DNA of 64,000 nucleotides from Planctomycetota bacterium (GTDB taxonomy: Bacteria; Planctomycetota; B15-G4): NCBI GenBank assembly GCA_021604805.1, contig BQJR01000002.1, forward strand, positions 936,391 through 1,000,390, written 5' to 3'. The notes under the pieces were generated by a model that ran no database searches, was not told where the DNA came from, and was given only the letters and a program-made list of their open reading frames with translations. Shown in pieces: positions 10,759 to 50,136 of this stretch. Each line of letters opens with the position of its first letter. Within the stretch, counting starts at the first letter, position 1. A program made the position numbers and the translations under genes.

Positions 10759-13281
10759 TCAGCGCACAGACTGGTTGAGCAGCACCGCGAAGCGGTTGGG
10801 GTGGCCGCTGGCGATGAGGTCGAAGTCGCCGTCGCCGTCGAGGTCGTCGACCAGGATGCCACCGGACCCGCCACTCCCCGGGAAGCGGCCCGCCGACTCG
10901 AAGCTTCCATCGCCCTGGCCGAGCAGGATCTCGACATCGAAGGATGACCAGCGCCTCGTCGCGAGGTCCACGATGCCGTCGCCATCCAAGTCTGCGATGA
11001 CGATCGAGTGCACGGACTTCGCAGCGAGCGGAACTGCCGGGCCGAAGCTGCCGTCGCCGACGCCGAACAGGATCACCGCATCGTGTTGATTGTTGAGGGT
11101 GACCAGGAGGTCGGGGATCGCGTCGCGGTTGAGATCGCCGACGGTCAGTTGCGTGATGGACAAGCCGGGCCCGTAGATCTGCAGCGGGCCGAAGGTCCCG
11201 TCGCCCGCACCGAGCGCGACGACCACTCCCGGCTGGCCGTCGAGGAACGCGAGATCGAGATTGCCGTCTCCATTCAGGTCTTCGAGCGCCAGCCCGAGTG
11301 AGGACGGCGCGGTGGCGACGGCTTGGGGCGCGCCGAACGTTCCGTCGCCGATTCCGAGCATGAGCTTCACGGTGTCGACGCCGCCACCCGTGGAGGAGAG
11401 GGCGAGGTCGGGAGCGCCGTCGTTGTTCAGGTCGCCGATCGCCACGTAGCCTGGGTCGGTGCTCACCGGGTAGCTGGTCACGGCGCCGAGTGTTCCGTCA
11501 CCCAGGCCCAGCAGCACCCACACGGCGCCCAGCGCGCGGGTCCCGACGACGTCGGGGATGCCGTCGCCGTTCAGGTCGGCGATGGCCAACGACCAGAATG
11601 AGCCGTGCGAGGTCGGGTGGATCTGGGCGACGCCGAAGCTTCCGTCACCGTTGCCGAGCAGGATCGAGATGTTGCCGAGGCCTGCGGCGACGATGTCGGT
11701 GAAGCCGTCGCCGTTCATGTCGGCGAGCTCGCCGTGGCCGGTCCCCGGGCCGGCGGAATAAGCGGGGGCGGTGATGAAGCTGCCGTCGCCCTTGCCGGGC
11801 AGAACGATGAGGTTGTCCCCGCCGGCGTTCAGCACCGCGAGGTCGACGAGACCGTCGTCGTCGAGGTCTTCGATCATCACGAAGGACGGCCGGACGTCTG
11901 CGACGAAGTGCGTGGCCTCGCCGAAGCTGCCATCGCCGTGACCGAGCAGGACCGTCGCGTCGAAGGAGTCCTCGTTCGCGAGGACGAGGTCTGGCGCGCC
12001 GTCGCTGTTCAGGTCACGGATGGCGACCGAGCTGGGGTCCTCGCCCACGGTGATGGAGAGGTTGTCCGCGAAGGTCCCGTCACCCAGGCCGAGTCGCACG
12101 GAGACCCGATCTTGACCGGGGCAGGCGACCGCCAGGTCGAGCAGCCCGTCGCCGTTGAGGTCACCGAGCTCGAGGTCTCTCGGGTTGCTCTGTGCGGAAA
12201 CGCTCTGCGTGAGCGTGAACTGGCCGTCGCCGACTCCGCCGAATACCGACACCGTGCTCTCGCCCCGGTTCGCGACGACCAGGTCGAGCGCGCCGTCGCC
12301 GTCGAGGTCCCCGGTGTCGAGCGCGGTCGGGAGGTTGCCCACGCTGAGGTTCTGCGCGACGGCGAAGCTGCCGGTTCCGTCGCCGAGCAGCACGGTCACG
12401 CTGTCGTCGGCGCCGCTGAGCGGGGGGCCTTCATTGGCGAAGGCGAGGTCGAGCGCGCCGTCGCCGTTCAGGTCCACCAGGATCACGGCGGCGGGAACGT
12501 CTCCGGTGGCGACGGGCGTGGCGATGCCGAAGGTGCCGTCTCCCTTGCCGAGCAGGATGGTCACGTTGTCGGCTCCACTGTTCGCGACGGCGAGGTCGGC
12601 GAGGCCGTCCGAGTTGATGTCGCCGACGGCGACGGAGCGCGCTTGGGCGCCGGTGGCGAACTTCTGCGGAAGACAGAAGCCGCCGTCGCGCTCACCGAGC
12701 ATGACGGACACAGAACCCGTGTCCCGGTTGCTCACGACGAGGTCGAGGCGGTCGTCCCCGTTGAAGTCGTGGAACACGCCCGAGTTCGGGCTGGAGCCGA
12801 CCGCGTAGGAGAGACCCGGGAACAGCGGCTCGGTGTGGCCCTTCTCGAGCACCGACACCACGAGGGTGTTCGACGCCGAGTAGCCGCCCTCGGCCCCGGG
12901 GTCCTGGATCCAGAACTGCGCTGCGACCTCGAAACCGGCGGGCAGTTCGGAGGGAACCTTGAACCGCAGGCTGAGCCCGCCCGCCGCGTCGGTTGACAGG
13001 GTCGGCAGCACGGCATCCAGCGCCGGCCCGAGGATGCCTCCCTTGAAGGGCACGCCGATCTGCGTCAGCCCGAGCACGAGCGTGGCGTTGGCGTGGGGCA
13101 AGGCGCCGCTGAGCCGCAGACGGTTCTCAGTGGAACCGGCCTGGGTTGAGCCGCTGCCCGAGAGTGCCGGCACGAGCGCGTCGGTTCCGGCTGTGCCCGG
13201 CCAGGTGACGCTGAACCCGCCAGCGTGCAGCGACGGGCAAAGCAAGGCGAGCGCAGCGATCCAACTCAGAGCAGTGGACAC
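10759..13281 (-). CDS. secreted FG-GAP/VCBS repeat protein (14 repeats) with N-terminal ~120-aa module
   Basis: Signal peptide followed by 14 D-[LIFM]-[ND]-x-D-G-x-x-D-[LIV] repeats, counted by hand. Confidence 0.9.
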   Translation of the reverse strand: MSTALSWIAALALLCPSLHAGGFSVTWPGTAGTDALVPALSGSGSTQAGSTENRLRLSGALPHANATLVLGLTQIGVPFKGGILGPALDAVLPTLSTDAAGGLSLRFKVPSELPAGFEVAAQFWIQDPGAEGGYSASNTLVVSVLEKGHTEPLFPGLSYAVGSSPNSGVFHDFNGDDRLDLVVSNRDTGSVSVMLGERDGGFCLPQKFATGAQARSVAVGDINSDGLADLAVANSGADNVTILLGKGDGTFGIATPVATGDVPAAVILVDLNGDGALDLAFANEGPPLSGADDSVTVLLGDGTGSFAVAQNLSVGNLPTALDTGDLDGDGALDLVVANRGESTVSVFGGVGDGQFTLTQSVSAQSNPRDLELGDLNGDGLLDLAVACPGQDRVSVRLGLGDGTFADNLSITVGEDPSSVAIRDLNSDGAPDLVLANEDSFDATVLLGHGDGSFGEATHFVADVRPSFVMIEDLDDDGLVDLAVLNAGGDNLIVLPGKGDGSFITAPAYSAGPGTGHGELADMNGDGFTDIVAAGLGNISILLGNGDGSFGVAQIHPTSHGSFWSLAIADLNGDGIPDVVGTRALGAVWVLLGLGDGTLGAVTSYPVSTDPGYVAIGDLNNDGAPDLALSSTGGGVDTVKLMLGIGDGTFGAPQAVATAPSSLGLALEDLNGDGNLDLAFLDGQPGVVVALGAGDGTFGPLQIYGPGLSITQLTVGDLNRDAIPDLLVTLNNQHDAVILFGVGDGSFGPAVPLAAKSVHSIVIADLDGDGIVDLATRRWSSFDVEILLGQGDGSFESAGRFPGSGGSGGILVDDLDGDGDFDLIASGHPNRFAVLLNQSVR

Positions 13282-13598
13282 GGGGAGACTCCAGGTGAGG
13301 TGTGAGCCGGCTGGCTGATGTCCGCGATGACGCGGGCGCTTCGAGCGAGCCTTCGGGGGCGCGCACCGAGAAGCCGCCTCCCCTCAGTCGGCGACTCGGT
13401 CGGGCGGGAACGCGATACAGCGCTGATCCGGCTGCGCGCCGGTGCGCGGCACGCCCTGTGACACGGCCGCCCGCGAACACGGGAACGAGGCCGCCGGTGC
13501 CGGGCCCTGAATCGGGGTCGGGTCGACTACAGGAGTTGGCGCCGCGCTCGATGCAGCGCGACGACCAAGTGAGAGTGAGCGCGTGAGAGCGCGCAGGC

Positions 13599-17300: not shown

Positions 17301-17523
17301 GTGAGGCTCCCGTTGAGTCGCGCGGTCAGCCAGGGCCCGTGCCCCGAGTGCAGCTCCCACGCCCCGCGGGCAGTTTAGGTGCCCTGCGCGATCGGGGGTG
17401 CATTTCGCGTGATCGGCCCCGGGAGCGCGTGCGATTCCCACCGCGATGCGGGGACGCCAGGGATGCCTGTCCCGCACGACGGCGCGAGCTCACGCCGCGC
17501 CAACGGTTCCCCGACCTTCAACC

Positions 17524-18501
17524 TCAGAGCGGCAGCTCAACTCCGCGCCCTGCAGCCTCGGCCGCGCTCAGCAAGCGCTTCGCCAGCGCGACGTCCAGCA
17601 CGCCCAGGCCGAGGTTCGCGGCCATCACGATCGGGGTGCCGTCGGGGCGCTTGGCGCCGGCGCCGCACACGATCTTGCCGAGCTCGTCGGTGGGTGACTT
17701 GTAGCCGACGAAGTGGCCGTGCTGCTGGTAGTGCTCGAACTGCGCGAGGTCGTCGGTGATGCAGAGATCGCTGCCGTCGAAGCAGGCTTGGTCGAAGGCG
17801 GCGTCGAAGTCGAGGCTCACGCAGAGCGTGCCGGTCTGGATGAAGGCCGGCTCGATGAAGGGCTTGGGCTCCTTCAGGATCGGCGTGGCCGTCACGATCA
17901 CGTGGCCACCGACGCAGGCTTCTTCGGCGTCGGGCGGGATGATCGAGGCCAGGTCGAAGGTCGTCATCACTTCGTCGGCGAACTTCTCTTGGGCCGACGG
18001 GTCGATGTCGTAGGCGAGCATGCGCTCGGTGTCGGGGAACACGGCGAGCAGCGCCTCGATGTTCACGCGACCTTGCACGCCGCAGCCGATGATCGTCATG
18101 ACTTCGCTGTTCGGATCGGCGAGGTGCTTGGCGGTGACCGCGGTGCAGGCGCCGGTGCGCACGGCGGTGATCTGCGCGGCGTCCATGAAGGCGAGCGGAC
18201 GACCCGTGTCGGGGTCGTTCAAGATCATGGTGCCGTGGATGTAGGGCAGACCCTTCTCGGGGTTGTTCGGGTAGCCGGCCACCCACTTGATGCCGAGCGC
18301 CGCTTGGTCGCGCACGTGCGCGGGCATGGCGTGCAGGAAGGCGTCGTCGTCGAGCCCGCCGACATCCACCTTGGGCGGCATCGAGGTCTTGCCCTCACCG
18401 TGCTGGTGCAGCGTCTGCTCGACGATCTCCACCACCTCTTTCATCGGCGGCATCAGTGCGGCGACGTCTTCGCTCGACAGGTAGCGGACGGTGTTGCTCA
18501 T
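17524..18501 (-). CDS. ornithine cyclodeaminase/mu-crystallin family protein
   Basis: SMPPKV, HAMPA, GIKWV..YPNNP..GLP, ITAVRTGA and Rossmann IIGCGVQG. Start re-picked at ATG 18501. Confidence 0.9.
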   Translation of the reverse strand: MSNTVRYLSSEDVAALMPPMKEVVEIVEQTLHQHGEGKTSMPPKVDVGGLDDDAFLHAMPAHVRDQAALGIKWVAGYPNNPEKGLPYIHGTMILNDPDTGRPLAFMDAAQITAVRTGACTAVTAKHLADPNSEVMTIIGCGVQGRVNIEALLAVFPDTERMLAYDIDPSAQEKFADEVMTTFDLASIIPPDAEEACVGGHVIVTATPILKEPKPFIEPAFIQTGTLCVSLDFDAAFDQACFDGSDLCITDDLAQFEHYQQHGHFVGYKSPTDELGKIVCGAGAKRPDGTPIVMAANLGLGVLDVALAKRLLSAAEAAGRGVELPL

Positions 18502-18593
18502 GGGACTCGGGCGTCTCGGGGCGTTTCGAAAGGTGTGCGGGTGTGCGGTGCGGGTCGGGGCGACTCGGAGCGGGGCGGCGCAGGCTTGCGCGT

Positions 18594-20557: not shown

Positions 20558-20654
20558 CGCTTTCTCCAGGTTGGTCCCCCCCAACCGCGAAAGGCCGGTA
20601 TTCTACGCTCGGTTGCCTGCGGAGGCGATTTCGAACGTTCCTGGAGTGAGTTCC

Positions 20655-22494: not shown

Positions 22495-25400
22495 TCAGCG
22501 TTCGCCCGTGACCAGTCGACGTGCCTCACGCACCAAGTTGTTGGTCGTGGGGCCGGGCGGCTCGCCGCGCGACCCGAGGCTCAGCAGGGCCTCGTCGAGG
22601 TAGGCCTCGGCCAGGGCGCTGGCACCCAACCGGGTGTTGGCCATGGCCAGCACGAGCAGATCCCACTCCACGGGATACTCGCGCAGCGACGCGTTCAAGC
22701 GCTTCGCCTCGGTGAGCGCTTCGAGCGCGGCGCGGTCGTTGCCGCACCGGTATTGCGCCAGGCCCAGCACGTGCAGGACGCGCGGCTGGCCCGGCGCCAG
22801 GCGGTTCGCAGCGCGCGCCAAGCGACGCGCCTCGCGACAGGTTTCCGGATCGGCGTGACGTTCGAGCAGCAGCCCGCGCGCCGCCTCCGTGAGCAGCGCC
22901 GGGTCGCTGCCGAAGTTGCGCACGAGGCGCAGCGCCTCTTCGCGCACCACAGGGTCGAGGCGCGTGTCGGCGCGCAGCGCGTCGGCCACGGCACGCGGGT
23001 CTTCGAGCGCCTCGAGCAAGTCGGTGAAGCGCTGCTGCGCGGGTTCGAGCGCGGCCGCGCGATCGTGTCGCTGGGCGAAGCCGGGCGCGGCGCTGCCCGT
23101 CTCCCAAGTGAGGATGCGACTGCCGGCCGCCACGTGCAGACGCGCGCCGTCGGTGGAGAAGGCGAGGGCGTCGGCGGGGGCGCCGGCTTCCAGGCTCAAC
23201 AGCGCGTTGCCTTCGGGGACGGACCAGATGCGCACGCTGCCGTCGCTCGAAGCCGAGGCCAGGCGTTCGCCGCTGGGATGGAAGGCGAGGTCGTTCACGA
23301 CGCCGCGATGACCTTGCAGGCGCGCCACGAGTTGCGGCGTGTCTTTGGTGTCGTAGATGAGCACTTGGCGGTCTTCGCCGGCGCTGGCGAGCCAGCGGCC
23401 GTCGGGGCTGAAGGTCACGCTGAGCACGCCGCGCGTGTGGTCGTGCAGCGCGAGCAGTTGCGCGCCGTCGTCGAGGCTCCAGATGCGCACGCTCTCGTCG
23501 AAGGAGGCCGTGGCGATCCACGGTCGGCTGGGGTGGAAGACCACGTCGCGTACGCGGCTGCCGTGACCTTCGAGGGTGCGCGTGAGTGCGCCGCGTTCCA
23601 CGTCCCACACACGCGCGCTGCGATCATCCGACGCACTGGCGAGCAGGCGACCCGAGCTCTCGAAGCTCACGGCGTGGATCGGTTCTTGATGACCGAGCAG
23701 ACGACGGTGTTCGGCCAGTTCGCCCGTGTCGCTCACCTTCCACACGATGAGCGGGAAATCTTGATGACGGCTCGCGTCGTTGAGCCCGGCGGCGGCGAGT
23801 GTGCCGCTGTTCGAGAGCGCCACGGCTGCGCCGCCGCCGCCGGGCAGATCGCCCACGCCGAGCGAGAGCAGCGCGCCGCTGTCCCAGAGTCGTGCGCGGC
23901 CGTCCCAACTCGCCGAGAGCAGGCGCCGACCCGCGGCCGCGGCGAGCGAGCGCACGCTGTCGGTGTGACCCATGAGTTGGGTTTGCGCGGCGCCCCAGCT
24001 GAGATCCCAACTGAGCAGCGCGCCGTCGAGCGAGCCGCTCAGGATGCGCAGGCCGTCGGGGGTGCTGCAGAGCGCGCTCACGCCGTCGTCGTGGCCGAGC
24101 ATGCGGTCGAGTTCGCGGCCGGTCCACGCGTCCCACACGCGCAGGTTGCCCGAGGCCATGCCCGCGACGAGTTGCGCGCCATCGGGCGTGAAGAGCAGGC
24201 GCGTGGGGACCTCGGGCGCCACGTCGAACTCGTGCTCGGGCACTTGTGAACCCACGCTGTAGACGCGCACGACGCCGGCCTCTTCGGCACTCGCGAAGCG
24301 TTCGGCCACAGGCGAGTGCGCCACGGCGAGCACCTCGGAGTCGTAGTCGTAGAGCGTGTCGAGCAGCTCCCCCGCCACGACGTCGATCAGCGCGACCGTG
24401 CGATCGCGCGACGCGCTCACGAGCAGGCTGCCGTCGTGGGAGAGTGCGAGGTCGGTGATCTCTTGCGCGTGCGGGCGGGGCAGCGCGTAGGGGTTGCCGG
24501 TGTCGAGGCGCCAGGCGAGCACGCGGCCGTCGTCGCGGCCGGCCACTACGAGGTCGCTGCTTGCGGCGCGCGCGAGGCGCGTGATCTCGGGCGCGCGACG
24601 CGTCGCGCCTTCGGGCGGCTCGAGGCTGCCGAGCAAGGCGCCGTTGCTCGCGCCCAGCAAACGCACCTGGCCGTCGCCGCTGGCGATCACGAGCTGCGTG
24701 CTGTCGGCGCTGAAGAGCACGTCGGTGGCGGCCGACTCGCCGGGGTCGAAGCGCGCCAAGCGCTGGCCCGTGGCGGCGTCCCAGAGATCGAGTTCACCCA
24801 CCCAGGAGGCGCTCAGCACGCGCTGGCCATCGGGCGACACGCGCAGGGCGGACACAGCAGCATCGTGACGACCGAAGCGCCCCAAGCTCACGTCCGCGCG
24901 CGCGCGCAGGTGTTCCCATTCCCAGCCCCGAAGCGCTGCCGGTGCCTCCTCGAGTTGACGCAGCAGTTCGGCGCGCGAGCCATCGGCGAGCGCGGCTTGC
25001 GCGGCGGCGAGCGAGGCCATGTAGCCCTGGCGCAAGGCGCGCGCGGTGGCTTGCTCGGCGCTCACGAGCGCGAGGTCGGCGCGCGTGGCGGAGGCTTCGG
25101 CCGCGCTCTTGGCAGCCTCGGCTTCGGCGCGCGCTTGCTCCGCGTGGGCTTGTTCGGTTTGCGCTGTGTGCGTGGCCTCGACCAAGGATTGGTTGCGTTG
25201 ACGTTCGCGCACGCCCAGCCCGGTCATCGCGAGCAGGAACACGAGCAAGACTGCCGCCGTGAGTTTGTTGCGCACGACCCACTTGCGCAGTTCGACCAGT
25301 GCGCCCGTGCGGTGCGCACGCACCACGCGGCCTTCGAGGAAGGCGCGCAACTCGTCGGCCATCTCGGACATGTCGGCGTAGCGGTCGCGCGCTTCGCGGG

Positions 25401-26598
25401 CCATGGCCTTGTCGCAGATCGCCGCCAGCTCCGGGTCGACGCGCCGGTTGATCTGGTGCAGCGGACGCGGCGGGCCTTCGCGCAGCGCGCGCAACACTTC
25501 GCGCGGACCGCGTCGCTCACCGTTGGGCACGAAGGGCATCTCGCCGGCGAGCAAGTGATACAGCAGCGCGCCCACGGCGTAGACATCGCTCGACGGGCCG
25601 AGTTCCTCGAGCTCGCCGCGCGCTTGTTCGGGCGACATGTAGGCGGGCGTGCCCACCACCGCGCCGTCGAGCGTGCGCAAGGGGCTGTCGCTGCGACGCG
25701 AGCTCGCGTCGTGACGTTCGGTCTGCACGTCGTCGAGCGTGGCCGGGTCGTCGGCGCTGCCCGAGGACTCCTCAGCGCCCTCGCGCTCGAGCACCTTCGC
25801 GAGGCCCCAGTCCATCACGTACACCTCGCCGAAGCGACCCACCATGATGTTCGCGGGCTTGATGTCGCGATGCAGCACGCCCTTGCTGTGCGCGTAGGCC
25901 AGCGCCTCGCACACTTTCTGCAGCACGTTGAGCGTGCGCGGCACGGTCCAGCCATCGCGCTGGTCGTGAACGAGTTCGAAGATCGTGCGCAGGCTGCGGC
26001 CGCGCACCAGGCGCATGGTGAAGTACACGCGGCCGGTGTCGTCGAGGCCGAGTTCGTGCACCGGCACGATGCCGGGGTGATCGAGTTGCCCGGTGATCTG
26101 CGCCTCTTCGAGGAAGCGCCCGAGTTGACGCGTGCTGCTCGCGCTGTCGCTGGCTTTGGGGTCGGGCGGCAGCATCACTTTCATGGCGAGCTGTCGCCGC
26201 AGGTCGCCGTCCCAGGCGCGCAAGACCACGCCCATGCCGCCGCGCCCGAGTTCACCGCGCGTGCCGTAGCGCGCGCTGGCCGACGGGCGCGCGCTGAGTC
26301 GGCCGATCAGCTTGTCGACGGCTTCGCGCGAGGTGGGGTCGGCGGACGCGGCGTCGTCGTCGCCCACGAGGCGCAGCGTGGCGCCGGGCACGCTCGGTGC
26401 GTCGTCTCCCAAGGCATCGACCGCCCCGGCGAGACGCTGCCAGCGCGCGTGCAAGCGTTGCAGGTCGGCGGCGTGGTCGAGGTGCTCGTCGAGGAAACTC
26501 TCGAAGGGGACATCCTCGCCCTCTTCGAAGCGCTTCAGGAAGCCTTGGTAGAGCTCCTGAGCAGCGGCCGACACGGCGGCGGGATCGGGCTTGCTCAT
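22495..26598 (-). CDS. Hanks-type Ser/Thr protein kinase with TM/coiled coil, WD40 repeats and C-terminal TPR-like helices
   Basis: LGRGGMGVV, AMK, HRDIKPAN, DWGLAK, GTPAYMSPEQ, then many GH...WD/WS repeats. Confidence 0.95.
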   Translation of the reverse strand: MSKPDPAAVSAAAQELYQGFLKRFEEGEDVPFESFLDEHLDHAADLQRLHARWQRLAGAVDALGDDAPSVPGATLRLVGDDDAASADPTSREAVDKLIGRLSARPSASARYGTRGELGRGGMGVVLRAWDGDLRRQLAMKVMLPPDPKASDSASSTRQLGRFLEEAQITGQLDHPGIVPVHELGLDDTGRVYFTMRLVRGRSLRTIFELVHDQRDGWTVPRTLNVLQKVCEALAYAHSKGVLHRDIKPANIMVGRFGEVYVMDWGLAKVLEREGAEESSGSADDPATLDDVQTERHDASSRRSDSPLRTLDGAVVGTPAYMSPEQARGELEELGPSSDVYAVGALLYHLLAGEMPFVPNGERRGPREVLRALREGPPRPLHQINRRVDPELAAICDKAMAREARDRYADMSEMADELRAFLEGRVVRAHRTGALVELRKWVVRNKLTAAVLLVFLLAMTGLGVRERQRNQSLVEATHTAQTEQAHAEQARAEAEAAKSAAEASATRADLALVSAEQATARALRQGYMASLAAAQAALADGSRAELLRQLEEAPAALRGWEWEHLRARADVSLGRFGRHDAAVSALRVSPDGQRVLSASWVGELDLWDAATGQRLARFDPGESAATDVLFSADSTQLVIASGDGQVRLLGASNGALLGSLEPPEGATRRAPEITRLARAASSDLVVAGRDDGRVLAWRLDTGNPYALPRPHAQEITDLALSHDGSLLVSASRDRTVALIDVVAGELLDTLYDYDSEVLAVAHSPVAERFASAEEAGVVRVYSVGSQVPEHEFDVAPEVPTRLLFTPDGAQLVAGMASGNLRVWDAWTGRELDRMLGHDDGVSALCSTPDGLRILSGSLDGALLSWDLSWGAAQTQLMGHTDSVRSLAAAAGRRLLSASWDGRARLWDSGALLSLGVGDLPGGGGAAVALSNSGTLAAAGLNDASRHQDFPLIVWKVSDTGELAEHRRLLGHQEPIHAVSFESSGRLLASASDDRSARVWDVERGALTRTLEGHGSRVRDVVFHPSRPWIATASFDESVRIWSLDDGAQLLALHDHTRGVLSVTFSPDGRWLASAGEDRQVLIYDTKDTPQLVARLQGHRGVVNDLAFHPSGERLASASSDGSVRIWSVPEGNALLSLEAGAPADALAFSTDGARLHVAAGSRILTWETGSAAPGFAQRHDRAAALEPAQQRFTDLLEALEDPRAVADALRADTRLDPVVREEALRLVRNFGSDPALLTEAARGLLLERHADPETCREARRLARAANRLAPGQPRVLHVLGLAQYRCGNDRAALEALTEAKRLNASLREYPVEWDLLVLAMANTRLGASALAEAYLDEALLSLGSRGEPPGPTTNNLVREARRLVTGER

Positions 26599-41092: not shown

Positions 41093-41122
41093 GCGCCCTC
41101 GCGGTGCGCGACCCGGAGCCCG

Positions 41123-43951
41123 TCAGCGCGTGGTGAACGCGCGTTCGTGTGCGCGCGCAGCCACGATGCGCGCCACGACTTCGTCGTCGCCCGCATCGCG
41201 TTCGGCGGTTTCCCACAGGCCGAGCGTGTGGTCGATCAGCGGGTGCCCGTTGGCGAGGCGGAAGCTCGACGACTCTTCGAGGATCACGAGCAGGTGTGTG
41301 AGCGAGACGCGGGCTTCGTCGAGCAGGTCGGTGTGGATCTGCATCCAGCCGAGGCGCGCTGCGATCAAGGCCGTCGCGCTGCGCAGCTCTTCGACTTCGG
41401 GCCAGCGTGCGTGCGCGTCGAGCATGCGCGGGAGCATCGGGCGCAGCAGGTCGAGGGCTGAGTAGCGGCGGCCGTCGGCTTCGATGAGCACCGCGAGGTC
41501 GTGCACTTGGGAGGCGAGCGTCGTCATGAGCAAGTGCTCGTCGCCCTCCACGGCGATCACGGCTTCGAGGTCGGCGATGGCGAAGTCGTAGAGCTGCTCG
41601 GACTCGCGCGTTTGCTTCAGGGCCTTGAGCGTGCGTGCCATGCCGCTCAACAAGAACGCGCGCTCTTGGCGCAGGTCGAGCGGGATCGAGTCGGAGTCGT
41701 AGCGCGCTTGCAGATCGCGCTGCACGGCCGCGCCGTAGCGGATCACGTCGACGTACGCGTCTTCGCCGACTTCGCGCGCCAGGCTGCGCTGCCACAGGTG
41801 TCGGCTGAACGAGAACACCGCTTCCATGCGACGCGCGAGCGCGAGGTCGGGATCGAGGTCGGCGCTGGCCGTGTCGGTGATGTCTTCGAGTAGCTCGAAG
41901 GCTTGGTGGAAGCGCGGCGCGGCGGCGTCGACCTCGGCGAGCGGGTTGTCCCAGTCGGCGAGCACGAGGAGCGTGTTGGCCAGGTCGAAGCGCGCCAGCG
42001 GGTCGGCGGAGTGGGCCACGCGTGTGCGCGCGATCTCCAGCGCGCGCAGCAGCCAGGCGAGTTGCGCGTCGCGCTCCTGTTCATCGCCGTGCATCAACTT
42101 GTTGGGGTCGACGCGGCCGAAGGCGCCCATGTACTCGAAGCGTGCCAGCTCGTCGCGTTCCGCCGCGCTCCACTCGCCGCCGTCGGGTGGGCCGGACGCG
42201 AGCAACTCCCGTACGGTCGCCGCGAGCTCTTCGAAGTCTTGCCGGCTCTCGTCGAGACGACCGACCAGGTTCAGCGTGGTCGCCATGTTGCGCACGATGT
42301 CGAGCCGACGCAGCACGAGCTCGCGACTGTCGGCGCGTTGCTCGAGGATCGCCGCGTAGAACTCGAGCGCGTTCTCGCGCAGGCTGCGACGCAACTCGGT
42401 CATGCCCGGCGCGCGATCGAGCACCTCGTTGCTGACTTCCACCAGCAACGTGTCGACGGCTTCGCGCGCGAGGTCGAGGTTGCCTTCGGCGCGGGCGCGC
42501 TCCGTGTTGGCGAGCGTGAGGTTTGCTTCCGCGCGATCGCGTTGGGCGGCGGTCTCGGTGACTTCGTCGCGCAGCTCATCGGCGTGGTTTGCAGTCACGA
42601 GCGCGTAGCCCGTGGGCACACCCACGATCAGCAAGCCGGCGAGCACGAGCGCGGCCGCAACCGCAGGTCGACGCTTGGCCCAGGTCGTGGCGCGATGCGC
42701 GAGCGAGGGCGGGCGCGCGAGCACCGGCTCGCTCTTGAGCAGTCGCTGCAAGTCGGCGGCGAAGGCCTCGGCGCTCGCATAGCGGCGTGCGGGATCGGGG
42801 TCCAGCGCCACCGCGCACACGGCTTCGGTGTCACGGTCGAGCGCGCGGTTCCAGGTGCGCGGCGACGGCGCGCGCGTCTCCAGGATCTGTCGACGCAACG
42901 ACTCGGTGGACTCGGCCACGAAGGGCGTGCGCAGCGTGAGCAACTCGAAGAGCGTGGCGCCCAAGCTGTACACGTCGCTGCGTGGATCGCGGCTGGCGTT
43001 CTCGCTGCGCAGGCGTTCGGCCGGCATGTAGGCGAGCGAGCCGAGCAGTTGCCCGGTGACCGTGAGGCGCGTGCTGCCGTCGCGCACGGCCAGCCCGAAG
43101 TCGAGCAAGCGCACGCGGCCGTCGACACCGAGGATCACATTGCTCGCTTTGATGTCGCGATGCAGCACGCCCTGCGCGTGCGCGTACGCGAGTGCCTCGG
43201 CCACGGTGTGCGCGATGCGCAACGCGGCGCGCACCCAGGTGTCGCCGAAGAGCGCGCTCTCACGTGCGCCAGCACCCACGGCCGAGCGACTCACGCTCGA
43301 GCGACTTGCGCTTGATGCAGTCGCCGCGCCCGCTGCGTCGGGAGTGACCGAGGGCGTGGCGTCCTGCACATCCGCGTTCTCCGTGACGCCCGCGCGCTCG
43401 CGCACCACGCGCTCCAAGTCGGCGCCGCTCAGCGTGCTCGGGTCGCGGCCCTTGAATGCGCGGATCACGTCTTCGAGGGAGGCGCCCTCCACGAACTCCA
43501 TCGAGAGCCAGGGCAAGCCGTTTTCCTCGCCCACCTCGTACAGCGGTACAATCCCGGGATGAGTGAGCGCCGCCACCAGTTCGGCCTCGCGCGCGAAGCG
43601 TTCGCGCGCCCCCGGGAACCACAGTTGCTCAGGACGCACCAACTTGAGCGCCACGCGACGCCCGAGGCGTTGTTGTTCGGCGAGGTGCACCACGCCCATG
43701 CCGCCCTCGCCGAGCCGACGCAGCAGCTTGTAGTCGCCGATGCGTTCGGGCAGCGCGTGCAGCGACGGCGCGCTCTCTTCGGGTTCGGTGAGCAGGCCCA
43801 TGTCGGCCAGGCGGCGCAAGCGTTTGCGGATCGCGTCGGCGTGTTGGGGGTGCGCGTCGCACACGGCGTCCACCGCGGCGTCGCCTTCGCCCTCGCGGCG
43901 CGTGATGCACTCCGCCACCAAGTCGGCCACGAACTCCGACGCGTCGCTCAT
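41123..43951 (-). CDS. Hanks-type Ser/Thr protein kinase with TM, coiled coil and TPR-like C-terminus
   Basis: LGEGGMGVV, VALKLV, HRDIKASN, DFGLA and GSLAYMPAE. AGGAG lies upstream of ATG 43951. Confidence 0.93.
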   Translation of the reverse strand: MSDASEFVADLVAECITRREGEGDAAVDAVCDAHPQHADAIRKRLRRLADMGLLTEPEESAPSLHALPERIGDYKLLRRLGEGGMGVVHLAEQQRLGRRVALKLVRPEQLWFPGARERFAREAELVAALTHPGIVPLYEVGEENGLPWLSMEFVEGASLEDVIRAFKGRDPSTLSGADLERVVRERAGVTENADVQDATPSVTPDAAGAATASSASRSSVSRSAVGAGARESALFGDTWVRAALRIAHTVAEALAYAHAQGVLHRDIKASNVILGVDGRVRLLDFGLAVRDGSTRLTVTGQLLGSLAYMPAERLRSENASRDPRSDVYSLGATLFELLTLRTPFVAESTESLRRQILETRAPSPRTWNRALDRDTEAVCAVALDPDPARRYASAEAFAADLQRLLKSEPVLARPPSLAHRATTWAKRRPAVAAALVLAGLLIVGVPTGYALVTANHADELRDEVTETAAQRDRAEANLTLANTERARAEGNLDLAREAVDTLLVEVSNEVLDRAPGMTELRRSLRENALEFYAAILEQRADSRELVLRRLDIVRNMATTLNLVGRLDESRQDFEELAATVRELLASGPPDGGEWSAAERDELARFEYMGAFGRVDPNKLMHGDEQERDAQLAWLLRALEIARTRVAHSADPLARFDLANTLLVLADWDNPLAEVDAAAPRFHQAFELLEDITDTASADLDPDLALARRMEAVFSFSRHLWQRSLAREVGEDAYVDVIRYGAAVQRDLQARYDSDSIPLDLRQERAFLLSGMARTLKALKQTRESEQLYDFAIADLEAVIAVEGDEHLLMTTLASQVHDLAVLIEADGRRYSALDLLRPMLPRMLDAHARWPEVEELRSATALIAARLGWMQIHTDLLDEARVSLTHLLVILEESSSFRLANGHPLIDHTLGLWETAERDAGDDEVVARIVAARAHERAFTTR

Positions 43952-43968
43952 CCAGCCAGGCTCCTGTG

Positions 43969-44685
43969 ATGCCCCCGAGCGATCCATCCTACTCGCCGAA
44001 GGACGATCCCGCCGCGGACACTGGCGCTGCGGCGGGCCGCGTCGATCCCGCCGAGACTGCGGCGAAGTCGCCGAGCGATGCGGCGCCGACGCCCCGTGAC
44101 ACCGAGTCGGCGTCGTCGGCGGATCTGGTGAGTCGCATCGCGGCCGGCGACGGCGCGGCCATGGAGCAGTTGATCGCGCAGCACTTGCCGCGTCTGCGCG
44201 CCTTCGTGCGGCTGCGACTCGGCCCGCGCCTGGCCGCCAAGGAATCCGCCAGCGACATCGTGCAGTCGGCCTGCCGCGACGTGCTCGGTCGCGCCGACCA
44301 GTTCCAGCACGGCGGCGAGGCCGGCTTCCGCGCCTGGCTCTACAAAGCCGCCACGCGCAAGATCGCCGACCGCGCCGAATACTGGGACGCCCAACGCCGC
44401 GACCCCGCGCGCGAAGCCCCCGGCGGCGACGACGCGCTGCTCAGCGCCTACACCGGCCTCGACACACCCAGCGTGGCCGCGCTCGGTCGCGAAGCGCTCG
44501 ACAACTTCGAACGCGTCTTCGCGCAACTCCCCGAAGACCACCGCGAGGTCATCGTGCTCTCGCGCATCGTGGGGCTCACGCGCGCGCAGATCGCCGCTGA
44601 GATGGGGCGCACCGAAGCCGCCATCCGCAACCTGCTGCCGCGCGCGCTCGCGCGTCTCGCCGACGCGCTCGAGCTCGAGGACTGA
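43969..44685 (+). CDS. ECF-type RNA polymerase sigma factor (kinase-associated)
   Basis: LVSRIAAGDGAAMEQL, ESASDIVQS, FRAWLYKAA and LPEDHREVIVL...IAAEMGRTEAAIRNLLPRA. Confidence 0.9.
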   Translation: MPPSDPSYSPKDDPAADTGAAAGRVDPAETAAKSPSDAAPTPRDTESASSADLVSRIAAGDGAAMEQLIAQHLPRLRAFVRLRLGPRLAAKESASDIVQSACRDVLGRADQFQHGGEAGFRAWLYKAATRKIADRAEYWDAQRRDPAREAPGGDDALLSAYTGLDTPSVAALGREALDNFERVFAQLPEDHREVIVLSRIVGLTRAQIAAEMGRTEAAIRNLLPRALARLADALELED

Positions 44686-44791
44686 ACGCAGGCCGCGCGG
44701 CGCGTTGCCGCGCGCGTCGCAGCAAGCACGCCGCAACGCTGCGCGACCCATGCTCGCCGCTGCGTTGCGAAGGTGCTCGCGAGGCACGTCC

Positions 44792-46555
44792 TCAGTAACC
44801 GAGGATGAGTTCGAGGCCGCCGCTGAACGCCACGCCGCGCGTGGCGCCGGGGTCGATCACCAACACCTGCAGGAAGGCGCTCAGGTGGCACAGTTCGTCG
44901 TCGTCGGGGAGCGCGGGCCACAAAGTGGTGCCGTTCGTCGCGACGGGGAACGACTGGATCTTGAAGGCGTCCACGAGCAGCGTGCCGTCTTTGAACGGGA
45001 TCGCCGCGGGGCTGAAGCCGAGGAACAACCAGGCCTGCGACGGCGCGCCGAGTGAGTTGCCCACGAACAACTGGAAGTTCGAGCCGAGCGTCGGCGGCGT
45101 GATGGCAACGAGGTTCGGGACGCCGAGCGTGCCGGGCCAGCCTTCGCCGTAGAGCGCCGAGTCGGGCGGGCAGCCTTCGCCCAGGTAGAACCATGCGGCG
45201 CCGGCATCGAAGCTGCCGTCGTCGTCGTGGGTGACGCCGACGAGCAGCTCGGCCACGCCGTCGCCGTTGATGTCGCCTCCCGACACGCTCGCGCCGTGAC
45301 GGTCGCCTGCCGTGCTGCTGCCGAACTCCGAGAGCAACGAACCGTCGGCGCCTGAGAACACACGCACGCGCCCGGCGTTGGTGATCGTGAACGGCGCGCC
45401 GAAGTCGAACAGCGGGATGCCGATCGCGTAGTCCTCGATGTCGTCGTGATCCAAGTCACCCACGAAGGCGGCGACTTCGCCGATCGGCGCGCTGGTCTGC
45501 CCGGCGGTGCCGGCGTGGTACTCCCAGTGCTCTTGCGCGAAGTTCACCGGAAGGATCGGCGTGTAGACGTCCACGAGTCCGTAGCCATTGAAGTTCGGAG
45601 TGCCGACCACGATCTGGCGCTCGCCGCTCGGCATCTCGCTTCCCATGCCGACCACGTAGCCCATGCGGATGCCGGCCGACGACCCCGTTCGGAATGTCGT
45701 CTCGAAGGACCCGCTGGCTCCGCTCACGTACATCACGGCGCCGATGTCCTGGTCGATCGCGAGCGTGTGGATGTGCTGACGGTCACTGTTCGGCGCGCCG
45801 ATGACCAAGCGCGCATGACGTGAGTCGAGCGACCAACCGACGTGCTGCAGCATGGCCTCGTAGGTGATGAGTCCGGGAGTCCCCGAGAGCACCGCGCGCG
45901 TGCCGCCCGCGATCTCTTCCACGAGCAGTCCCGTCGCGCCGGAGAAGACGTAGACCTTGCCCTCTTCGTCGAAGCCGCCCGTGCTGCTGTTCACGTCGTA
46001 GAACGGGGCGCCGATGGCGTAGTCGCGATGGTGGTCGAACTCGAGCAGGTTGGAGCCGCCCGCGATCGAGTGCCCGAAGCGTGAGAAGCGTTGCGTGCCG
46101 TAGTGCGTGCGGATCACGCCGCCGGTCGCACCCGAGCGCAGCTGCACGAGGCCTTCGTCGCCGAGCGGGCCGCTGCCGTAGGGCATGCCGACGAGCACGT
46201 CGTCGTGGCCGTCTTGGTCGATGTCGCCGGCGTCGGACACGGCGTAGCCGAAGAGCCCGTCGATCACCGTGCCGTACCAGTTGTAGAGCAGCGCACCCGT
46301 GGCGCCGGAGCGGATCTGCACGCGGCCCATGTCCGGGAGCACGGTGAACAGCGGGAAGAAGATCTCGCGGTCGGCGTCGGGCGAGGCGATGGCGAGGTCG
46401 CGCACGCAGTCGTTGTCGACATCGCCGATGATCTCGGTGACGGTGCCGAGGTGATCGTTCATGTGTTCGCCGTACCACTGCTCGTCGGGAGCTTGGGCGG
46501 CGAGCGGGAGCGTCGCGCAGAGCGACACGGCGAGTACGAAGTTCGAAGCACGCAT
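44792..46555 (-). CDS. secreted integrin-alpha-like FG-GAP repeat protein with C-terminal ~120-aa module
   Basis: Signal peptide, FG...GD[IV]DxDG..D...GAP repeats and xSGATG turns. Confidence 0.88.
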   Translation of the reverse strand: MRASNFVLAVSLCATLPLAAQAPDEQWYGEHMNDHLGTVTEIIGDVDNDCVRDLAIASPDADREIFFPLFTVLPDMGRVQIRSGATGALLYNWYGTVIDGLFGYAVSDAGDIDQDGHDDVLVGMPYGSGPLGDEGLVQLRSGATGGVIRTHYGTQRFSRFGHSIAGGSNLLEFDHHRDYAIGAPFYDVNSSTGGFDEEGKVYVFSGATGLLVEEIAGGTRAVLSGTPGLITYEAMLQHVGWSLDSRHARLVIGAPNSDRQHIHTLAIDQDIGAVMYVSGASGSFETTFRTGSSAGIRMGYVVGMGSEMPSGERQIVVGTPNFNGYGLVDVYTPILPVNFAQEHWEYHAGTAGQTSAPIGEVAAFVGDLDHDDIEDYAIGIPLFDFGAPFTITNAGRVRVFSGADGSLLSEFGSSTAGDRHGASVSGGDINGDGVAELLVGVTHDDDGSFDAGAAWFYLGEGCPPDSALYGEGWPGTLGVPNLVAITPPTLGSNFQLFVGNSLGAPSQAWLFLGFSPAAIPFKDGTLLVDAFKIQSFPVATNGTTLWPALPDDDELCHLSAFLQVLVIDPGATRGVAFSGGLELILGY

Positions 46556-46564
46556 GAGTCGTCC

Positions 46565-48328
46565 TCAGAAACCGGGTTGGAACTGGAGCGCTTTGCTGAA
46601 GGCCACGCCGAGCGGCGCGCCGGGGTCGATCACGAGCCCTTGCAAGTAGAAGCTCACGCCGCAGAGCGAGAGATCGAGCGGCAGCGTCGGGTGGAGCACG
46701 AGTGCGCTGCTGTTCATGGGCGCCGAGATGATCTTGAACGGCGACACGAGCAGCGTGCCGCCCTTGATCGGGAGCGACGCGGGCGCCACGCCGAGGAACA
46801 ACCACGCCGTGGTTGGTGCGCCGCTGGTGTTCGAGAGCGCCACGCTGTTCTGCACGCCCATGCTCGGTGCGAAGGCGAAGCTGAGCAGCGGTGTGCCGAA
46901 GGTCCCGGCGAGCCCCGTGCCGTAGGTGCTGACGCCGGCCGCGCACTCGATCGCTGGGAACACGAGCGCGGCGCCGACGTCATTGGCGGCGGCGTCGAAG
47001 CCGGGCGCGCCCGCGATCACGCGGCCGAGCAAGCTGGGTCCCACGCGTGCGAGCGCGACGGAAGTGCCGAGTCGGTCGAACGGTGAGCCGCCGTTGAAGC
47101 CGTTGATGTACGCGCCTGTGGCGGCGGCGTGCACGCGCACGGCGCCCGCGCTGGGGATCCCGAAGGGGCTGGCGAGACTGGAATCCGGCGAGCCGAGCAC
47201 GAGGTCGTCGAGCCCGTCGATGTCGGCGTCGAGGCCGAGCGCGAGCACTTCGCCGAAGGGCACGTCGGCGGTTCCGTCGACCACGCTCACCGGGCTCCAC
47301 GCGAAGGGGAACTCGGTGGCCGGTTGCGCCACGACCACGCGTCCGCCCACGCCGGTGCCGGGTTCGCCGAAGGCCACCTCGGGGTCGCCGCCGGGCACGA
47401 CCCAGCCCATGTCCACGGCCGCACCTGCACGCGCGCCGGCGTTCATCGGTGCGTGACTCGCGGGCGCGCCGCCGCCGGGTTGCACGACGAGCACGTAGCC
47501 GGTGTCGAGCGTGGTGCTGGCGGTGTCGAGATCCGTGAGGTCGCTGCCGGGCGCGCCGATTGCCAGGTGCCCCAGGTGCTCGCCGAGCGACGTGCCGAGT
47601 TGGCGCACGTCGACCTCGAAGTTCTGGATGCCGGGCACGTTGGGCGGCAGCAGCGTCGGGCCGCCGTAGTGCTGCGTGATCGGGTCGCCGTCCTGGCCGC
47701 CGAAGGTGAACACGGCGCCCTCTTCGTTCGAGCCGCCGACGTTGTCGTCGACATCGAACCACGGAGCGCCGATGGCGTAGTCGTCGCGGAACTCCGCGTC
47801 GAAGTCGGCGTCGCCTACGATCGATGCGCCGAAGCGCGAGAAGCGTTGCGGTCCCCAGTGCGTGCGAATCAGTGCGCCGGTGGCACCGCTGTAGATGCGC
47901 ACGGAGCCTTCCTGTCCGAGCACGTTGCTCGCCTTGGGGATGCCGATCAGGATGTCGGGGACGTTGTCGTTGTCGATCCTGCCGGCGTCAGCGACCGCGG
48001 CACCGAAGAGCGCGCCGGCGTGGCTGCCGGACCAGCCGCGGATGTACTCTCCGGTGACGCCGGAGAACACCGACACGCGCCCGACGTCCGGGTTGAGCGT
48101 GCCGGGGAAGCCCACCACGGTGTCGGCGTGCGGCGAGCCGACAGCGATGTCGCGATAGCCGTCGCCATTCATGTCGCCGACCTCGGCCACGCACTCGCCG
48201 AAGCTGTCGCCGAAGAGTGAGCCGCTCAGGGTGAGCTCGGGGGCTTGCGTGCGGGCAGCGGTCGCGAGCAGCGTGAGCAGCGCGAAACCGCTGAGTGAGC
48301 GAACGAGGTGAAGGCGCGACGGGAACAT
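46565..48328 (-). CDS. secreted integrin-alpha-like FG-GAP repeat protein, tandem paralog of 44792..46555
   Basis: Same architecture, with shared segments such as IRTH.G.QRFSRFG and DYAIGAP..DV....G...EEG.V. Confidence 0.88.
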   Translation of the reverse strand: MFPSRLHLVRSLSGFALLTLLATAARTQAPELTLSGSLFGDSFGECVAEVGDMNGDGYRDIAVGSPHADTVVGFPGTLNPDVGRVSVFSGVTGEYIRGWSGSHAGALFGAAVADAGRIDNDNVPDILIGIPKASNVLGQEGSVRIYSGATGALIRTHWGPQRFSRFGASIVGDADFDAEFRDDYAIGAPWFDVDDNVGGSNEEGAVFTFGGQDGDPITQHYGGPTLLPPNVPGIQNFEVDVRQLGTSLGEHLGHLAIGAPGSDLTDLDTASTTLDTGYVLVVQPGGGAPASHAPMNAGARAGAAVDMGWVVPGGDPEVAFGEPGTGVGGRVVVAQPATEFPFAWSPVSVVDGTADVPFGEVLALGLDADIDGLDDLVLGSPDSSLASPFGIPSAGAVRVHAAATGAYINGFNGGSPFDRLGTSVALARVGPSLLGRVIAGAPGFDAAANDVGAALVFPAIECAAGVSTYGTGLAGTFGTPLLSFAFAPSMGVQNSVALSNTSGAPTTAWLFLGVAPASLPIKGGTLLVSPFKIISAPMNSSALVLHPTLPLDLSLCGVSFYLQGLVIDPGAPLGVAFSKALQFQPGF

Positions 48329-48495
48329 GGGAACTCCTCACGGGGGGCCGTGAAGAGTCATCCGGATCGCAGGCCTCGAGGTCTCAGCGCGGAACGGGAC
48401 GGGCTTCAGGCGCGCGCCCCGGCCGCGAAGCTGAGACCACTGGAGCGGCGATCCGGATTGAGGACGTGACCCTCATTCATCACAAGGACCTCGCC

Positions 48496-50136
48496 ATGTT
48501 CCGCTTCATGTTCCGCATCTCGCCGCTCGTCGCCGCGCTGCTGCTCGCCGCGGTCGCGACCCCACTCACCGCGCAAGCCCCGCTGCTCACGATGGACATC
48601 CCGAGTGTGCAGGCCTTCGGCTACTCGGTGGACGCCATGGGCGACATGAACGGTGACGGCGCGCCCGACTTCGTGGTCGGCACGGTGAACGACGACACCT
48701 TCGACACCGACGCCGGCAGCGTGCGCATCGTGTCCGGCGCCGACGGCAGCATCCTGCTCACGCGCCTCGGCACCGAGAAGTTCGAGAACCTCGGCGAGAC
48801 GGTGGTGTGTGTGGGCGACATCGACGGCGACGGCGTGACCGACTTCGCCGCCACCTCGAAGCGCTCCGACGCCCTCGGTCCCGACGTGGGCGCGGTGCTC
48901 GTGATGTCCGGCGCCACCGGCGCCGTGATCCACGCCCTCGGCGACGTGGCCTACAAACCCTTCGGCGCCAGCGTCGCCGCGCTCGGTGACCTCGATGGCG
49001 ACGGCATCACCGAGATCGTCGGCAGCGCGAGCTTCAACGGTCCGCCCGGCGATCGCGGCGCCGTGATCGTGTTCGACGGCGCCACCGGCGCGCAGCTGTG
49101 GTCGTTCCCGGGCGTGGCCGGCGTGAGCCAAGTGCTCGGTCGTCACCTCGCCCCGCTCGACGACGTGAACGGCGACGGCCACCCCGACCTGCTCACCAGC
49201 GACGCGAACGACATGCTCGCCGGCCAGTTCCGCGGTCGCGTCTGGGTGCTCTCCGGCATCGACGGCAGCGTGATCCACGAGTGGGCCGGCAGCGTGGACT
49301 ACGAACGCCTCGGCACGGCCGTCGCCGCCGCGGGCGACGTGGACGCCGACGGCACGCCCGACATGCTCGTCTCCTGCAACAAGAACGATCAGGGCCTGAG
49401 CGCGCTGATCAGCAGCGTGCATGTGTACTCGGGCGCCACCGGCTTACGCTTGCTCACCGTGCTCGACACCGAGTACGCGAACAACTTCGGCACCACGGTC
49501 GCCGGCCTCGGTGATCGCAACGGCGACGGCCACGCCGACTTCGGCGTGTCCACGCTGGCCGGAGGCGTCAGCAAACCCGGCGTGGTCGACATCTACTCCG
49601 GCGCCGACGGCGCCTGGGTCGCACGCATGAAAGGCTCTCTGCCCGGCGACCAGTTCGGCCGCACGATCGCCACGCTCGGCGACCTCGACGGCGATGGCAA
49701 CGACGACCTCGTGGTCGGCGCGCCGGGCAGCACGAATCACTTCGTGCGCGTGATGTCGCTCGCCGGCAGCTTCGCAGTCACGGGCGCGGGCCTCGCCGGC
49801 ACGGGCGGGCTGGTTCCGAAGCTCTCAGGCTTCGGCTTCCCCGAAGGCGGTGGCAGCGTGGAGATCCGCCTGGTCGACGGGCGCAGCGTGGCGAGCTCGT
49901 TCACCTTCGTGGGCTTCGCGCCGGCGGCGCTGCCCTTCAAGCAGGGCACGCTGTGGGTCGCGCCGCCGTGGACGATCGTGTCGCTCAACCTGTCGGGCGC
50001 GGGCGGCTTCGCGGCTCCGGTGGCGCTCGACCCGAGCTTCTCAGGGCTTGGCGTCCACTTGCAGACGGCCGTTCAGGATCCCGTGGCGCCGGCGGGCTGG
50101 GCGCTCTCCAACGGGCTGTTCATGGCGGTGAACTGA
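48496..50136 (+). CDS. secreted integrin-alpha-like FG-GAP repeat protein with C-terminal module
   Basis: ATG 48496 after AAGGA, a signal peptide and 7 GD.[DN]GDG..D repeats. Confidence 0.88.
   Translation: MFRFMFRISPLVAALLLAAVATPLTAQAPLLTMDIPSVQAFGYSVDAMGDMNGDGAPDFVVGTVNDDTFDTDAGSVRIVSGADGSILLTRLGTEKFENLGETVVCVGDIDGDGVTDFAATSKRSDALGPDVGAVLVMSGATGAVIHALGDVAYKPFGASVAALGDLDGDGITEIVGSASFNGPPGDRGAVIVFDGATGAQLWSFPGVAGVSQVLGRHLAPLDDVNGDGHPDLLTSDANDMLAGQFRGRVWVLSGIDGSVIHEWAGSVDYERLGTAVAAAGDVDADGTPDMLVSCNKNDQGLSALISSVHVYSGATGLRLLTVLDTEYANNFGTTVAGLGDRNGDGHADFGVSTLAGGVSKPGVVDIYSGADGAWVARMKGSLPGDQFGRTIATLGDLDGDGNDDLVVGAPGSTNHFVRVMSLAGSFAVTGAGLAGTGGLVPKLSGFGFPEGGGSVEIRLVDGRSVASSFTFVGFAPAALPFKQGTLWVAPPWTIVSLNLSGAGGFAAPVALDPSFSGLGVHLQTAVQDPVAPAGWALSNGLFMAVN

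Follow-up and report, generated by a model that had tools for sequence, protein, structure and literature searches.

A terminal beta-sandwich module on more than 100 exported proteins of an uncultured planctomycete: a candidate envelope-docking or sorting handle

The closest described counterparts of the protein module considered here are the type A C-terminal domain (CTD) of the type IX secretion system (T9SS), the dockerins, and envelope-binding domains such as SLH and LysM. Classical dockerins are calcium-binding helical modules of ~70 residues that are mostly C-terminal and occasionally N-terminal, and SLH and LysM domains usually occur in tandem copies. The module lies in a 64,000-nucleotide stretch of DNA (the window; positions 936,391 to 1,000,390 of contig BQJR01000002.1, assembly GCA_021604805.1) from an uncultured planctomycete, whose metagenome-assembled genome (MAG) of 11 contigs and 4.47 Mb is 89 % complete. 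Five genes of the window, here called P0001 to P0005, encode FG-GAP proteins with one copy each of the module, placed behind the signal peptide in two of them and at the C-terminus in the other three.

Little is understood of how proteins reach their places in or on the unusual envelope of the Planctomycetota, and the module belongs to uncultured lineages. The module family is real, very large and undescribed, its fold class is ordinary, and we infer that it most likely functions as an envelope-docking or sorting handle. New here are a genome-wide census, the N-terminal and stand-alone architectures, tallies across the class and the phylum, and negative results for several candidate machineries.

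Copy number and placement of the module

The initial annotation had described an alignable domain common to the five FG-GAP genes, and this holds: genes and segments lie at the positions it gave, a MAFFT alignment of the five segments spans ~125 columns, of which 10 are invariant, with 26–43 % identity to the first segment, and the sequence blocks quoted there are present. The similarity greatly exceeds what chance would give. When the six-frame translation of the genome was searched with a hidden Markov model (HMM) built from these five rows alone, 106 open reading frames (ORFs) were found at a domain E-value <1e-3, the best match outside the window having an E-value of 9e-32, so that the module extends far beyond five paralogues. 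A profile search of the contigs gave 111 matches, and a profile rebuilt over two rounds brought the census to 119 ORFs, each with exactly one module copy and together amounting to ~4 % of 2,887 crudely called genes; further weak C-terminal matches suggest that 119 is a lower bound. Confinement to a few FG-GAP paralogues is contradicted by the 70 of 119 carriers that have no FG-GAP hit.

The module is C-terminal in 104 of the 119 carriers, ending no more than 12 residues from the stop codon in 103 and 14 residues from it in one, and the tail of these copies is of fixed length ('...SNxLxxxxP'), with proline as the last residue in 65 of 104. The other 15 copies are N-terminal or stand-alone. Fourteen lie directly behind the signal peptide, in 13 FG-GAP_3 proteins (~850–1300 aa) and one 1695-aa Kelch/malectin/TIG/GSDH protein, and one makes up a short ORF of signal peptide and module. 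Because copies occur at both ends of proteins, the module can do without a free terminus on either side. A crude rule based on hydrophobicity recognized signal peptides in 99 of the 119 carriers, and in many of the others one can be seen by inspection. Since a lipobox-like motif is present in only two carriers and a transmembrane (TM) tail in none, the module alone is left as a candidate for retaining the carriers. It had been noted at the outset that the module has neither a TM helix nor a basic tail and is thus unlike PEP-CTERM or LPXTG signals, in agreement with carrier C-termini at which the final module strand is followed by no hydrophobic or basic tail.

A tree of the modules suggested independent origins of N-terminal placement, with six changes required on the free tree and at least three forced by its starred branches, but these were not upheld, one clade of N-terminal copies having a p value of 0.196 in the approximately unbiased (AU) test. 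One N-terminal copy on an FG-GAP_3 protein (C3:428351-429838, minus strand, in the host genome, G000) is broken by a single TAG inside the match and may be a pseudogene or an assembly error. The stand-alone ORF (G000 C4:345446-346204, minus strand, equivalent to L166:7444-8145) encodes a signal peptide followed by the module and a tail of 27 aa, and lies 8 bp downstream of a pair of opgG (MdoG) and opgH-like GT2 genes. A link between this copy and opgG–opgH was rejected as too weak: an opgH-like gene is present in only 8 of 41 relatives, and the local copy of the module looks truncated. Module ORFs follow opgH-like genes in the host genome and, in one other genus, in two genomes; a third genome has a partial match on the opposite strand. 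Upstream of this region is a gene cluster (G000 C4:325360-341787) for a polyketide synthase (PKS; 2333 aa), a nonribosomal peptide synthetase (NRPS; 2615 aa) that ends in a reductase, and a B12-binding radical SAM protein.

Fold and passengers

The module had been called unrecognized, and Pfam and NCBIfam indeed give no family match. None of the five segments searched alone matched any Pfam family at E≤10 (0/5), and no NCBIfam family was matched by more than one module when 34 were searched at E≤1; five families each had a weak match to a single module, and none of these is a T9SS family such as TIGR04183, the model of the type A CTD. The Pfam and NCBIfam matches of the complete P0001 to P0005 proteins are of FG-GAP type only and all fall outside the module, and a strong match to a described family of known function, which the initial annotation had named as grounds for abandoning its proposal, did not appear. 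Matches of the module profile to PDB sequences were at chance level only (best E-value 0.12), and no description of the domain was found in the main texts of the literature. Among 96 full-length database representatives, the commonest Pfam family occurs in only 17; all 96 have the module, yet no family exceeds 17 of 96, and hence no Pfam model covers it.

For the P0003 copy, AlphaFold2 with a 34-row alignment predicts an all-beta domain (pLDDT 96.5, pTM 0.89), and this, together with the many unrelated passengers, bears out the portable beta-sandwich that had been proposed. The model has eight strands (residues 6-10, 23-25, 37-39, 47-62, 65-79, 84-86, 100-108 and 116-125), in which the loop following strand 1 is formed by the GxAGTxGxP block and the turn of the long central hairpin by PFKGG. 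A glutamine that is invariant in all 119 copies lies in strand 7, a conserved aspartate ends that strand, and the SN pair is in the last strand. The alignment agrees with the earlier statement that the P0002 copy has lost the GxAGT and PFKGG blocks and kept the rest, and this degenerate copy is still modelled as a beta-sandwich (pLDDT 88.7), in which confidence falls at residues 1-10 and 41-60, the regions of the missing blocks. The module is acidic, with a median pI of 4.5, and has few charged residues.

Structural comparison of the model with the PDB points to a fold class and to nothing more specific. Foldseek gave one match at E≤1e-3, with TM scores no higher than 0.46. The best match in an exhaustive VIA search was the macroglobulin (MG) domain of TEP1r (Z 9.0; root mean square deviation, rmsd, 2.4 Å over 88 of 128 residues), followed by LILRB4 and A2M (Z 8.0-8.3), immunoglobulin (Ig)-like receptors (Z ~8) and complement MG domains; the tool describes Z values of this range as usual for models that lack a true relative. 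At rank nine is the C-terminal part of PorU (Z 7.6, rmsd 2.9 Å over 93 residues), tied with generic Ig domains, and the weak matches also include a porphyran-binding carbohydrate-binding module (CBM), GH66 and dextranase domains, and BhCBM56. On these models the module is predicted to be an autonomous Ig/macroglobulin-like beta-sandwich of ~115 residues with no specific known relative.

A Pfam run on all 119 carrier ORFs found FG-GAP, FG-GAP_2 or FG-GAP_3 in 49, other families in 24 and none in 46. Proteases are represented by Peptidase_S8 (2), M10 (2), M36 and a reprolysin (M12) with Laminin_G_3; nucleases and hydrolases by Endonuclease_1, Exo_endo_phos and Sulfatase; and redox or haem proteins by GSDH (3, of the pyrroloquinoline quinone, PQQ, type), CCP_MauG (a di-haem cytochrome c peroxidase) and an MtrC-like multihaem protein. 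The remaining domains are Beta_helix (3), Spond_N, DUF7453 (2), SBBP with or without DUF7948 (2), TIG, Rax2 and those of the Kelch/malectin giant. At least 16 carriers are not propellers, and no glycoside hydrolase Pfam domain was found among the 119.

Distribution and genomic setting

The module is present in all 42 genomes examined from the class of the window's organism and in all 41 of the nearest genomes, many of which have at least 105 matches, with only 3-5 in one family (f5). Of 251 genomes sampled evenly across the phylum, 48 have a match at E≤1e-5 (35 of 238 outside the window's own order), and the distribution is all-or-none by family, the module being found, for example, in 6/6 genomes of family f9 and 5/5 of f16 as against 0/11 of f8 and 0/12 of f17. 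At least 138 matches were counted in one MAG labelled Planctomycetaceae. Two were found in a MAG with the label Myxococcota (G281, the genome of L034), the better with an E-value of 3e-14, and these two could reflect transfer, mislabelling or binning contamination.

When 1.84 billion cluster representatives were searched, the profile matched 18,240 at E≤1e-3, 6,930 at 1e-10 and 730 at 1e-30. Among the best 150 representatives the module is C-terminal in 147, N-terminal in two and 14 residues from the end in one, and 103 of the 147 end in proline. The relatives of P0003 that have names are from MAGs labelled Planctomycetota or Planctomycetaceae. The ESM Atlas includes P0003 itself; its neighbours there are most commonly from Planctomycetota, and its module part has TM scores of 0.87-0.93 to Planctomycetota clusters. 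Three of 10 clusters looked up have a name, in each case 'hypothetical protein', and a word-indexed protein search with the module gave four matches, none of them named. The sequencing runs listed for this DNA include none of RNA and two of DNA, both from one study, and one of the two may be the source of the sequence.

Conserved Sortilin-Vps10/BNR proteins of ~940-990 aa are module carriers in all five genomes of the sister family f5 that were searched. Further conserved carriers in this family are a GSDH protein and one with DUF7453, joined in a single genome by a C25 peptidase. Small f5 proteins consisting only of a hydrophobic N-terminus (a signal peptide or membrane anchor) and the module were also found (L191 and L194, genus g19); L192 (genus g26) has the same form, interrupted by TAA.

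The window has a G+C content of 67-71 %, and the positions of its module genes and module copies are given in Table 1. The modules of P0001 and P0002 start a few residues past the signal peptide (~7 residues past the predicted cleavage site in P0001), and those of P0003 to P0005 reach the stop codon. The start of P0001 is signal-peptide-like, and the signal peptide of P0002 is MLSSRRLIHALIVFAALTVQIFAS; the two proteins match Pfam FG-GAP_3 with E-values of 7e-96 and 5e-111 respectively. In the tree, the P0001 module falls in an eight-row clade made up wholly of N-terminal copies (99 % support), and those of P0003 and P0004 group in a five-row clade (98 % support). The three C-terminal copies of the window belong to a small diverged clade ending in an aromatic or other residue (P0003 in ...LILGY, P0004 in ...FQPGF and P0005 in ...FMAVN, without TM helix or basic tail). 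Two cysteines, at module residues 3 and 97 in P0003, are present in P0003 and P0004 among these three.

Table 1. Module genes, module copies and selected other genes of the window, in window positions
Feature	Position	Strand	Description
P0001	10759-13281	−	840 aa; signal peptide, N-terminal module, FG-GAP_3/FG-GAP repeats
Module of P0001	12859-13200	−	N-terminal; HMM envelope, E 1.4e-34
P0002	13599-17477	−	Likely start Met 17300; signal peptide, degenerate N-terminal module, long FG-GAP_3 array
Module of P0002	16917-17243	−	N-terminal, degenerate (no GxAGT or PFKGG block in the alignment); HMM envelope, E 6e-22, from model position 9
WD40 protein	22495-26598	−	1367 aa; N-terminal Ser/Thr kinase domain, long WD40 array
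Ser/Thr protein kinase	41123-43987	−	Adjoins the P0003-P0005 cluster
ECF sigma factor	43966-44685	+	Adjoins the P0003-P0005 cluster
P0003	44792-46555	−	587 aa; signal peptide, integrin-like FG-GAP propeller, C-terminal module
Module of P0003	44795-45178 (profile envelope 44795-45151)	−	C-terminal; HMM; copy used for AlphaFold
P0004	46565-48328	−	587 aa; signal peptide, FG-GAP propeller, C-terminal module
Module of P0004	46568-46951 (profile envelope 46568-46924)	−	C-terminal; HMM
P0005	48295-50136	+	Likely start Met 48496; signal peptide, FG-GAP propeller, C-terminal module
Module of P0005	49756-50133 (profile envelope 49780-50133)	+	C-terminal; HMM and alignment
Sortilin-Vps10/BNR protein	50151-52754	−	867 aa; directly after P0005; no module detected

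Genes for Ser/Thr kinases and for extracytoplasmic function (ECF) sigma factors lie within two genes of module genes in 10 of 34 and 5 of 13 cases respectively, against a background of 0.13 (uncorrected p values 0.01 and 0.02); this enrichment is regulatory context and not machinery. Besides the kinase and sigma factor genes next to P0003, a further site of such adjacency is at G000 C1:526708-530018, and a second protein similar to the kinase/WD40 protein of the window is encoded at G000 C2:227812-231288. A family of seven proteins of ~430-450 aa without Pfam hits (among them L157, G000 C1:521386-522681, and L158, C2:1008356-1009717) has five members whose genes adjoin module genes; with the kinases and ECF sigma factors it is the only family that was enriched among the neighbours. 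Its members consist of a signal peptide, a beta-helix-like N-terminal part and a C-terminal region ending in phenylalanine; this C-terminus resembles a strongly diverged module by eye, although the profile gave no confirmation.

No partner or machinery was found by searches of the host genome and its relatives. The T9SS CTD family PF18962 (Por_Secre_tail) had no match in the genome, with a positive control in Bacteroides, and neither had exosortase (EpsH, PF09721), again with a positive control, in a genome that is 89 % complete. SprA_N (PF14349) also gave no match, with a control that was silent everywhere and the other T9SS components outside the search, and PEP-CTERM (PF07589) gave none with a likewise silent control. 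GC-type dockerins (NCBIfam NF041540) are without a match in the genome, and a cohesin-like scaffold, sought there through internal repeats, did not emerge, no receptor-repeat scaffold being found; the top repeat-rich proteins are NRPS, PKS, UvrA-like, CarB, WD40 kinase, LVIVD, FG-GAP and beta-helix proteins. Peptidase_C25 (the gingipain/PorU family) was considered as a processing enzyme for the module and rejected, since it does not track the module: it has matches in 22 of 41 relatives, none in the host genome (with a silent control), and 14-30 per genome in family f5 (G019, G022, G025, G028 and G031), where the module is scarcest. One C25 protein of an f5 relative (L198) itself ends in the module.

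Possible roles and described systems

From the domain, its fold class, copy number, positions, signal peptides and distribution, all of them shown by the analysis, we tentatively favour, at somewhat less than an even chance, the reading that the module is a common envelope-docking handle on Sec-exported proteins of certain Planctomycetota. An ordinary signal peptide would take the carrier across the inner membrane, the module would fold independently, and, once folded, it would bind the carrier non-covalently to some common envelope component, which might be a glycan or a protein, in the outer membrane or the periplasm; the propeller, protease, nuclease or redox passenger would hence be kept with the cell. 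A position-independent handle of this kind is favoured over a strict C-terminal secretion signal. In its deployment, as one terminal copy behind a Sec signal peptide on more than 100 unrelated carriers within a restricted lineage, the module resembles an address or anchoring domain. Because it works at either end of a protein, the module behaves as a binding or anchoring domain in the manner of SLH, LysM and dockerins; N-terminal copies are found on two kinds of passenger, and stand-alone forms recur in family f5. Cytochrome c peroxidase, MtrC-like multihaem proteins and PQQ dehydrogenases need cell-bound redox partners, and the redox and haem passengers would be expected to work only in contact with the electron-transfer chain of the cell.

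Several points weigh against docking. The docking itself and the nature of its partner are inferred. The charge composition of the module offers no hint of a ligand, and its conserved residues, which lie mostly in turns or in and at the end of strand 7, may be structural and not a binding site. The N-terminal copies are compatible with a single clade in the AU test and may stem from one shuffling event, and the stand-alone ORF of the host genome is probably a truncated FG-GAP paralogue, its tail resembling the start of an FG-GAP passenger. Of the copies in the genome, 87 % are at the extreme C-terminus, as are 147 of the best 150 representatives, and a fixed-length tail ending in proline (65/104 and 103/147) is what a C-terminal sorting domain typically shows.

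The same C-terminal placement and tail, together with the single copy per protein, the share of the called genes, the great diversity of passengers and the all-or-none distribution by family, are what would be expected of a sorting tag read by a dedicated outer-membrane translocation or attachment machine, which would bring its carriers to the surface and might cleave the tag, as an analogue of the T9SS CTD. The fold class is that of T9SS CTDs, although the match to PorU is no better than those to generic Ig domains. We regard this reading as possible but doubtful, since 15 of the 119 copies are N-terminal or stand-alone, whereas the known C-terminal sorting domains have, to our knowledge, not been seen in either arrangement, and since no machinery was found, with Por_Secre_tail and exosortase at zero and SprA_N and PEP-CTERM at zero with silent controls; the module-bearing C25 peptidase of one relative does not generalize, C25 being most abundant where the module is rarest. 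The initial annotation had proposed a sorting or display domain served by an uncharacterized export or anchoring system. The deployment and the fold agree with that proposal, but the searches identified neither machinery nor partner, and the analogy with the T9SS CTD, while borne out in fold class, is weakened because N-terminal copies exist. A more far-reaching version, in which the module would be the cargo tag of an undiscovered, Planctomycetota-specific sorting or surface-attachment system, a counterpart of T9SS built from unrelated parts that handles ~4 % of the proteome in whole uncultured classes through a folded domain recognized at either end of its cargo, also seems to us conceivable and on the unlikely side.

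A ligand-binding module comparable to a CBM or adhesin would aim the passengers at a substrate or surface outside the cell, such as a biofilm matrix. An Ig-like beta-sandwich of CBM-like size would suit this role, the weak structural matches include CBMs and accessory domains of glycosidases, lectin- or adhesin-like passengers (propellers, beta-helices or malectin) are numerous, and CBMs are usually position-independent. We nevertheless think it improbable, for glycoside hydrolase domains are missing from all 119 carriers, the module is never in tandem, the CBM matches do not surpass those to generic Ig domains (Z <8), and redox passengers would be useless away from the cell. Less probable still, and in our view very improbable, is that the module has no addressing role and is a lineage-specific structural cap, stabilizer or spacer spread by domain shuffling. 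Such a role would fit a common fold without a detectable pocket motif, conserved positions that are mostly glycine and proline in turns, and annotated passengers that are mostly beta-propellers (49 FG-GAP proteins together with Kelch, Rax2, SBBP and GSDH). A strict terminal position, a single copy and a fixed C-terminal tail would however be unexpected of a spacer, the carriers that are not propellers speak against a propeller cap, and the retention of more than 100 copies per genome across the whole class argues for a common function.

If the partner of the module were a machine, it would represent a new secretion or attachment system, and if a glycan or scaffold, a new principle of anchoring. 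The module is in any case a usable marker for the envelope or surface proteome, comprising more than 100 exported proteins per genome and at least 18,240 clusters, and its patchy, all-or-none distribution sets carriers clearly apart from non-carriers, so that phylogenetic profiling could be used to look for the partner. It merits a Pfam or NCBIfam entry, by which thousands of 'hypothetical proteins' would be annotated.

Like the type A CTD of T9SS (PF18962, Bacteroidota), the module is a small Ig-like beta-sandwich that occurs singly at the extreme C-terminus of ~100 unrelated Sec-exported proteins, without a TM segment and with a lineage-restricted distribution. It differs in having no sequence match to the CTD, in its greater length (~115 aa), long beta-hairpin and conserved terminal proline, in its N-terminal and stand-alone copies, and in belonging to the Planctomycetota. 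With the dockerins of the cellulosome, and with the GC-type dockerins (NF041540) of Phycisphaerae, it shares the principle of a single terminal module addressing many exoenzymes to a common site, but it is all-beta, and the genome has neither NF041540 matches nor a recognizable scaffold with repeated receptor domains. SLH and LysM are similar to the proposed docking handle as autonomous binding domains at either terminus that retain exported proteins on the envelope; the module has a different fold, no sequence relation to them in Pfam, and is always single. The MG and Ig-like domains of TEP1r, alpha-2-macroglobulin, complement C3/C5 and LILRB4 are its best structural matches, but with 8-16 % sequence identity and the low Foldseek TM scores the resemblance is one of fold class only.

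A signal restricted to Planctomycetes is already known, the N-terminal signal peptide PF07595 found on presumed surface proteins (Studholme 2004, as cited in PMC8567305). According to that source it is a short motif (RRLxxExLExRxLLA) on giant proteins, whereas the module is a folded domain of 115 aa whose carriers have ordinary Sec signal peptides. By the features tested, the module belongs to none of the described systems compared here. Its nearest analogue is the T9SS CTD in its deployment, and the dockerins and cell-wall-binding domains in the logic of its position independence.

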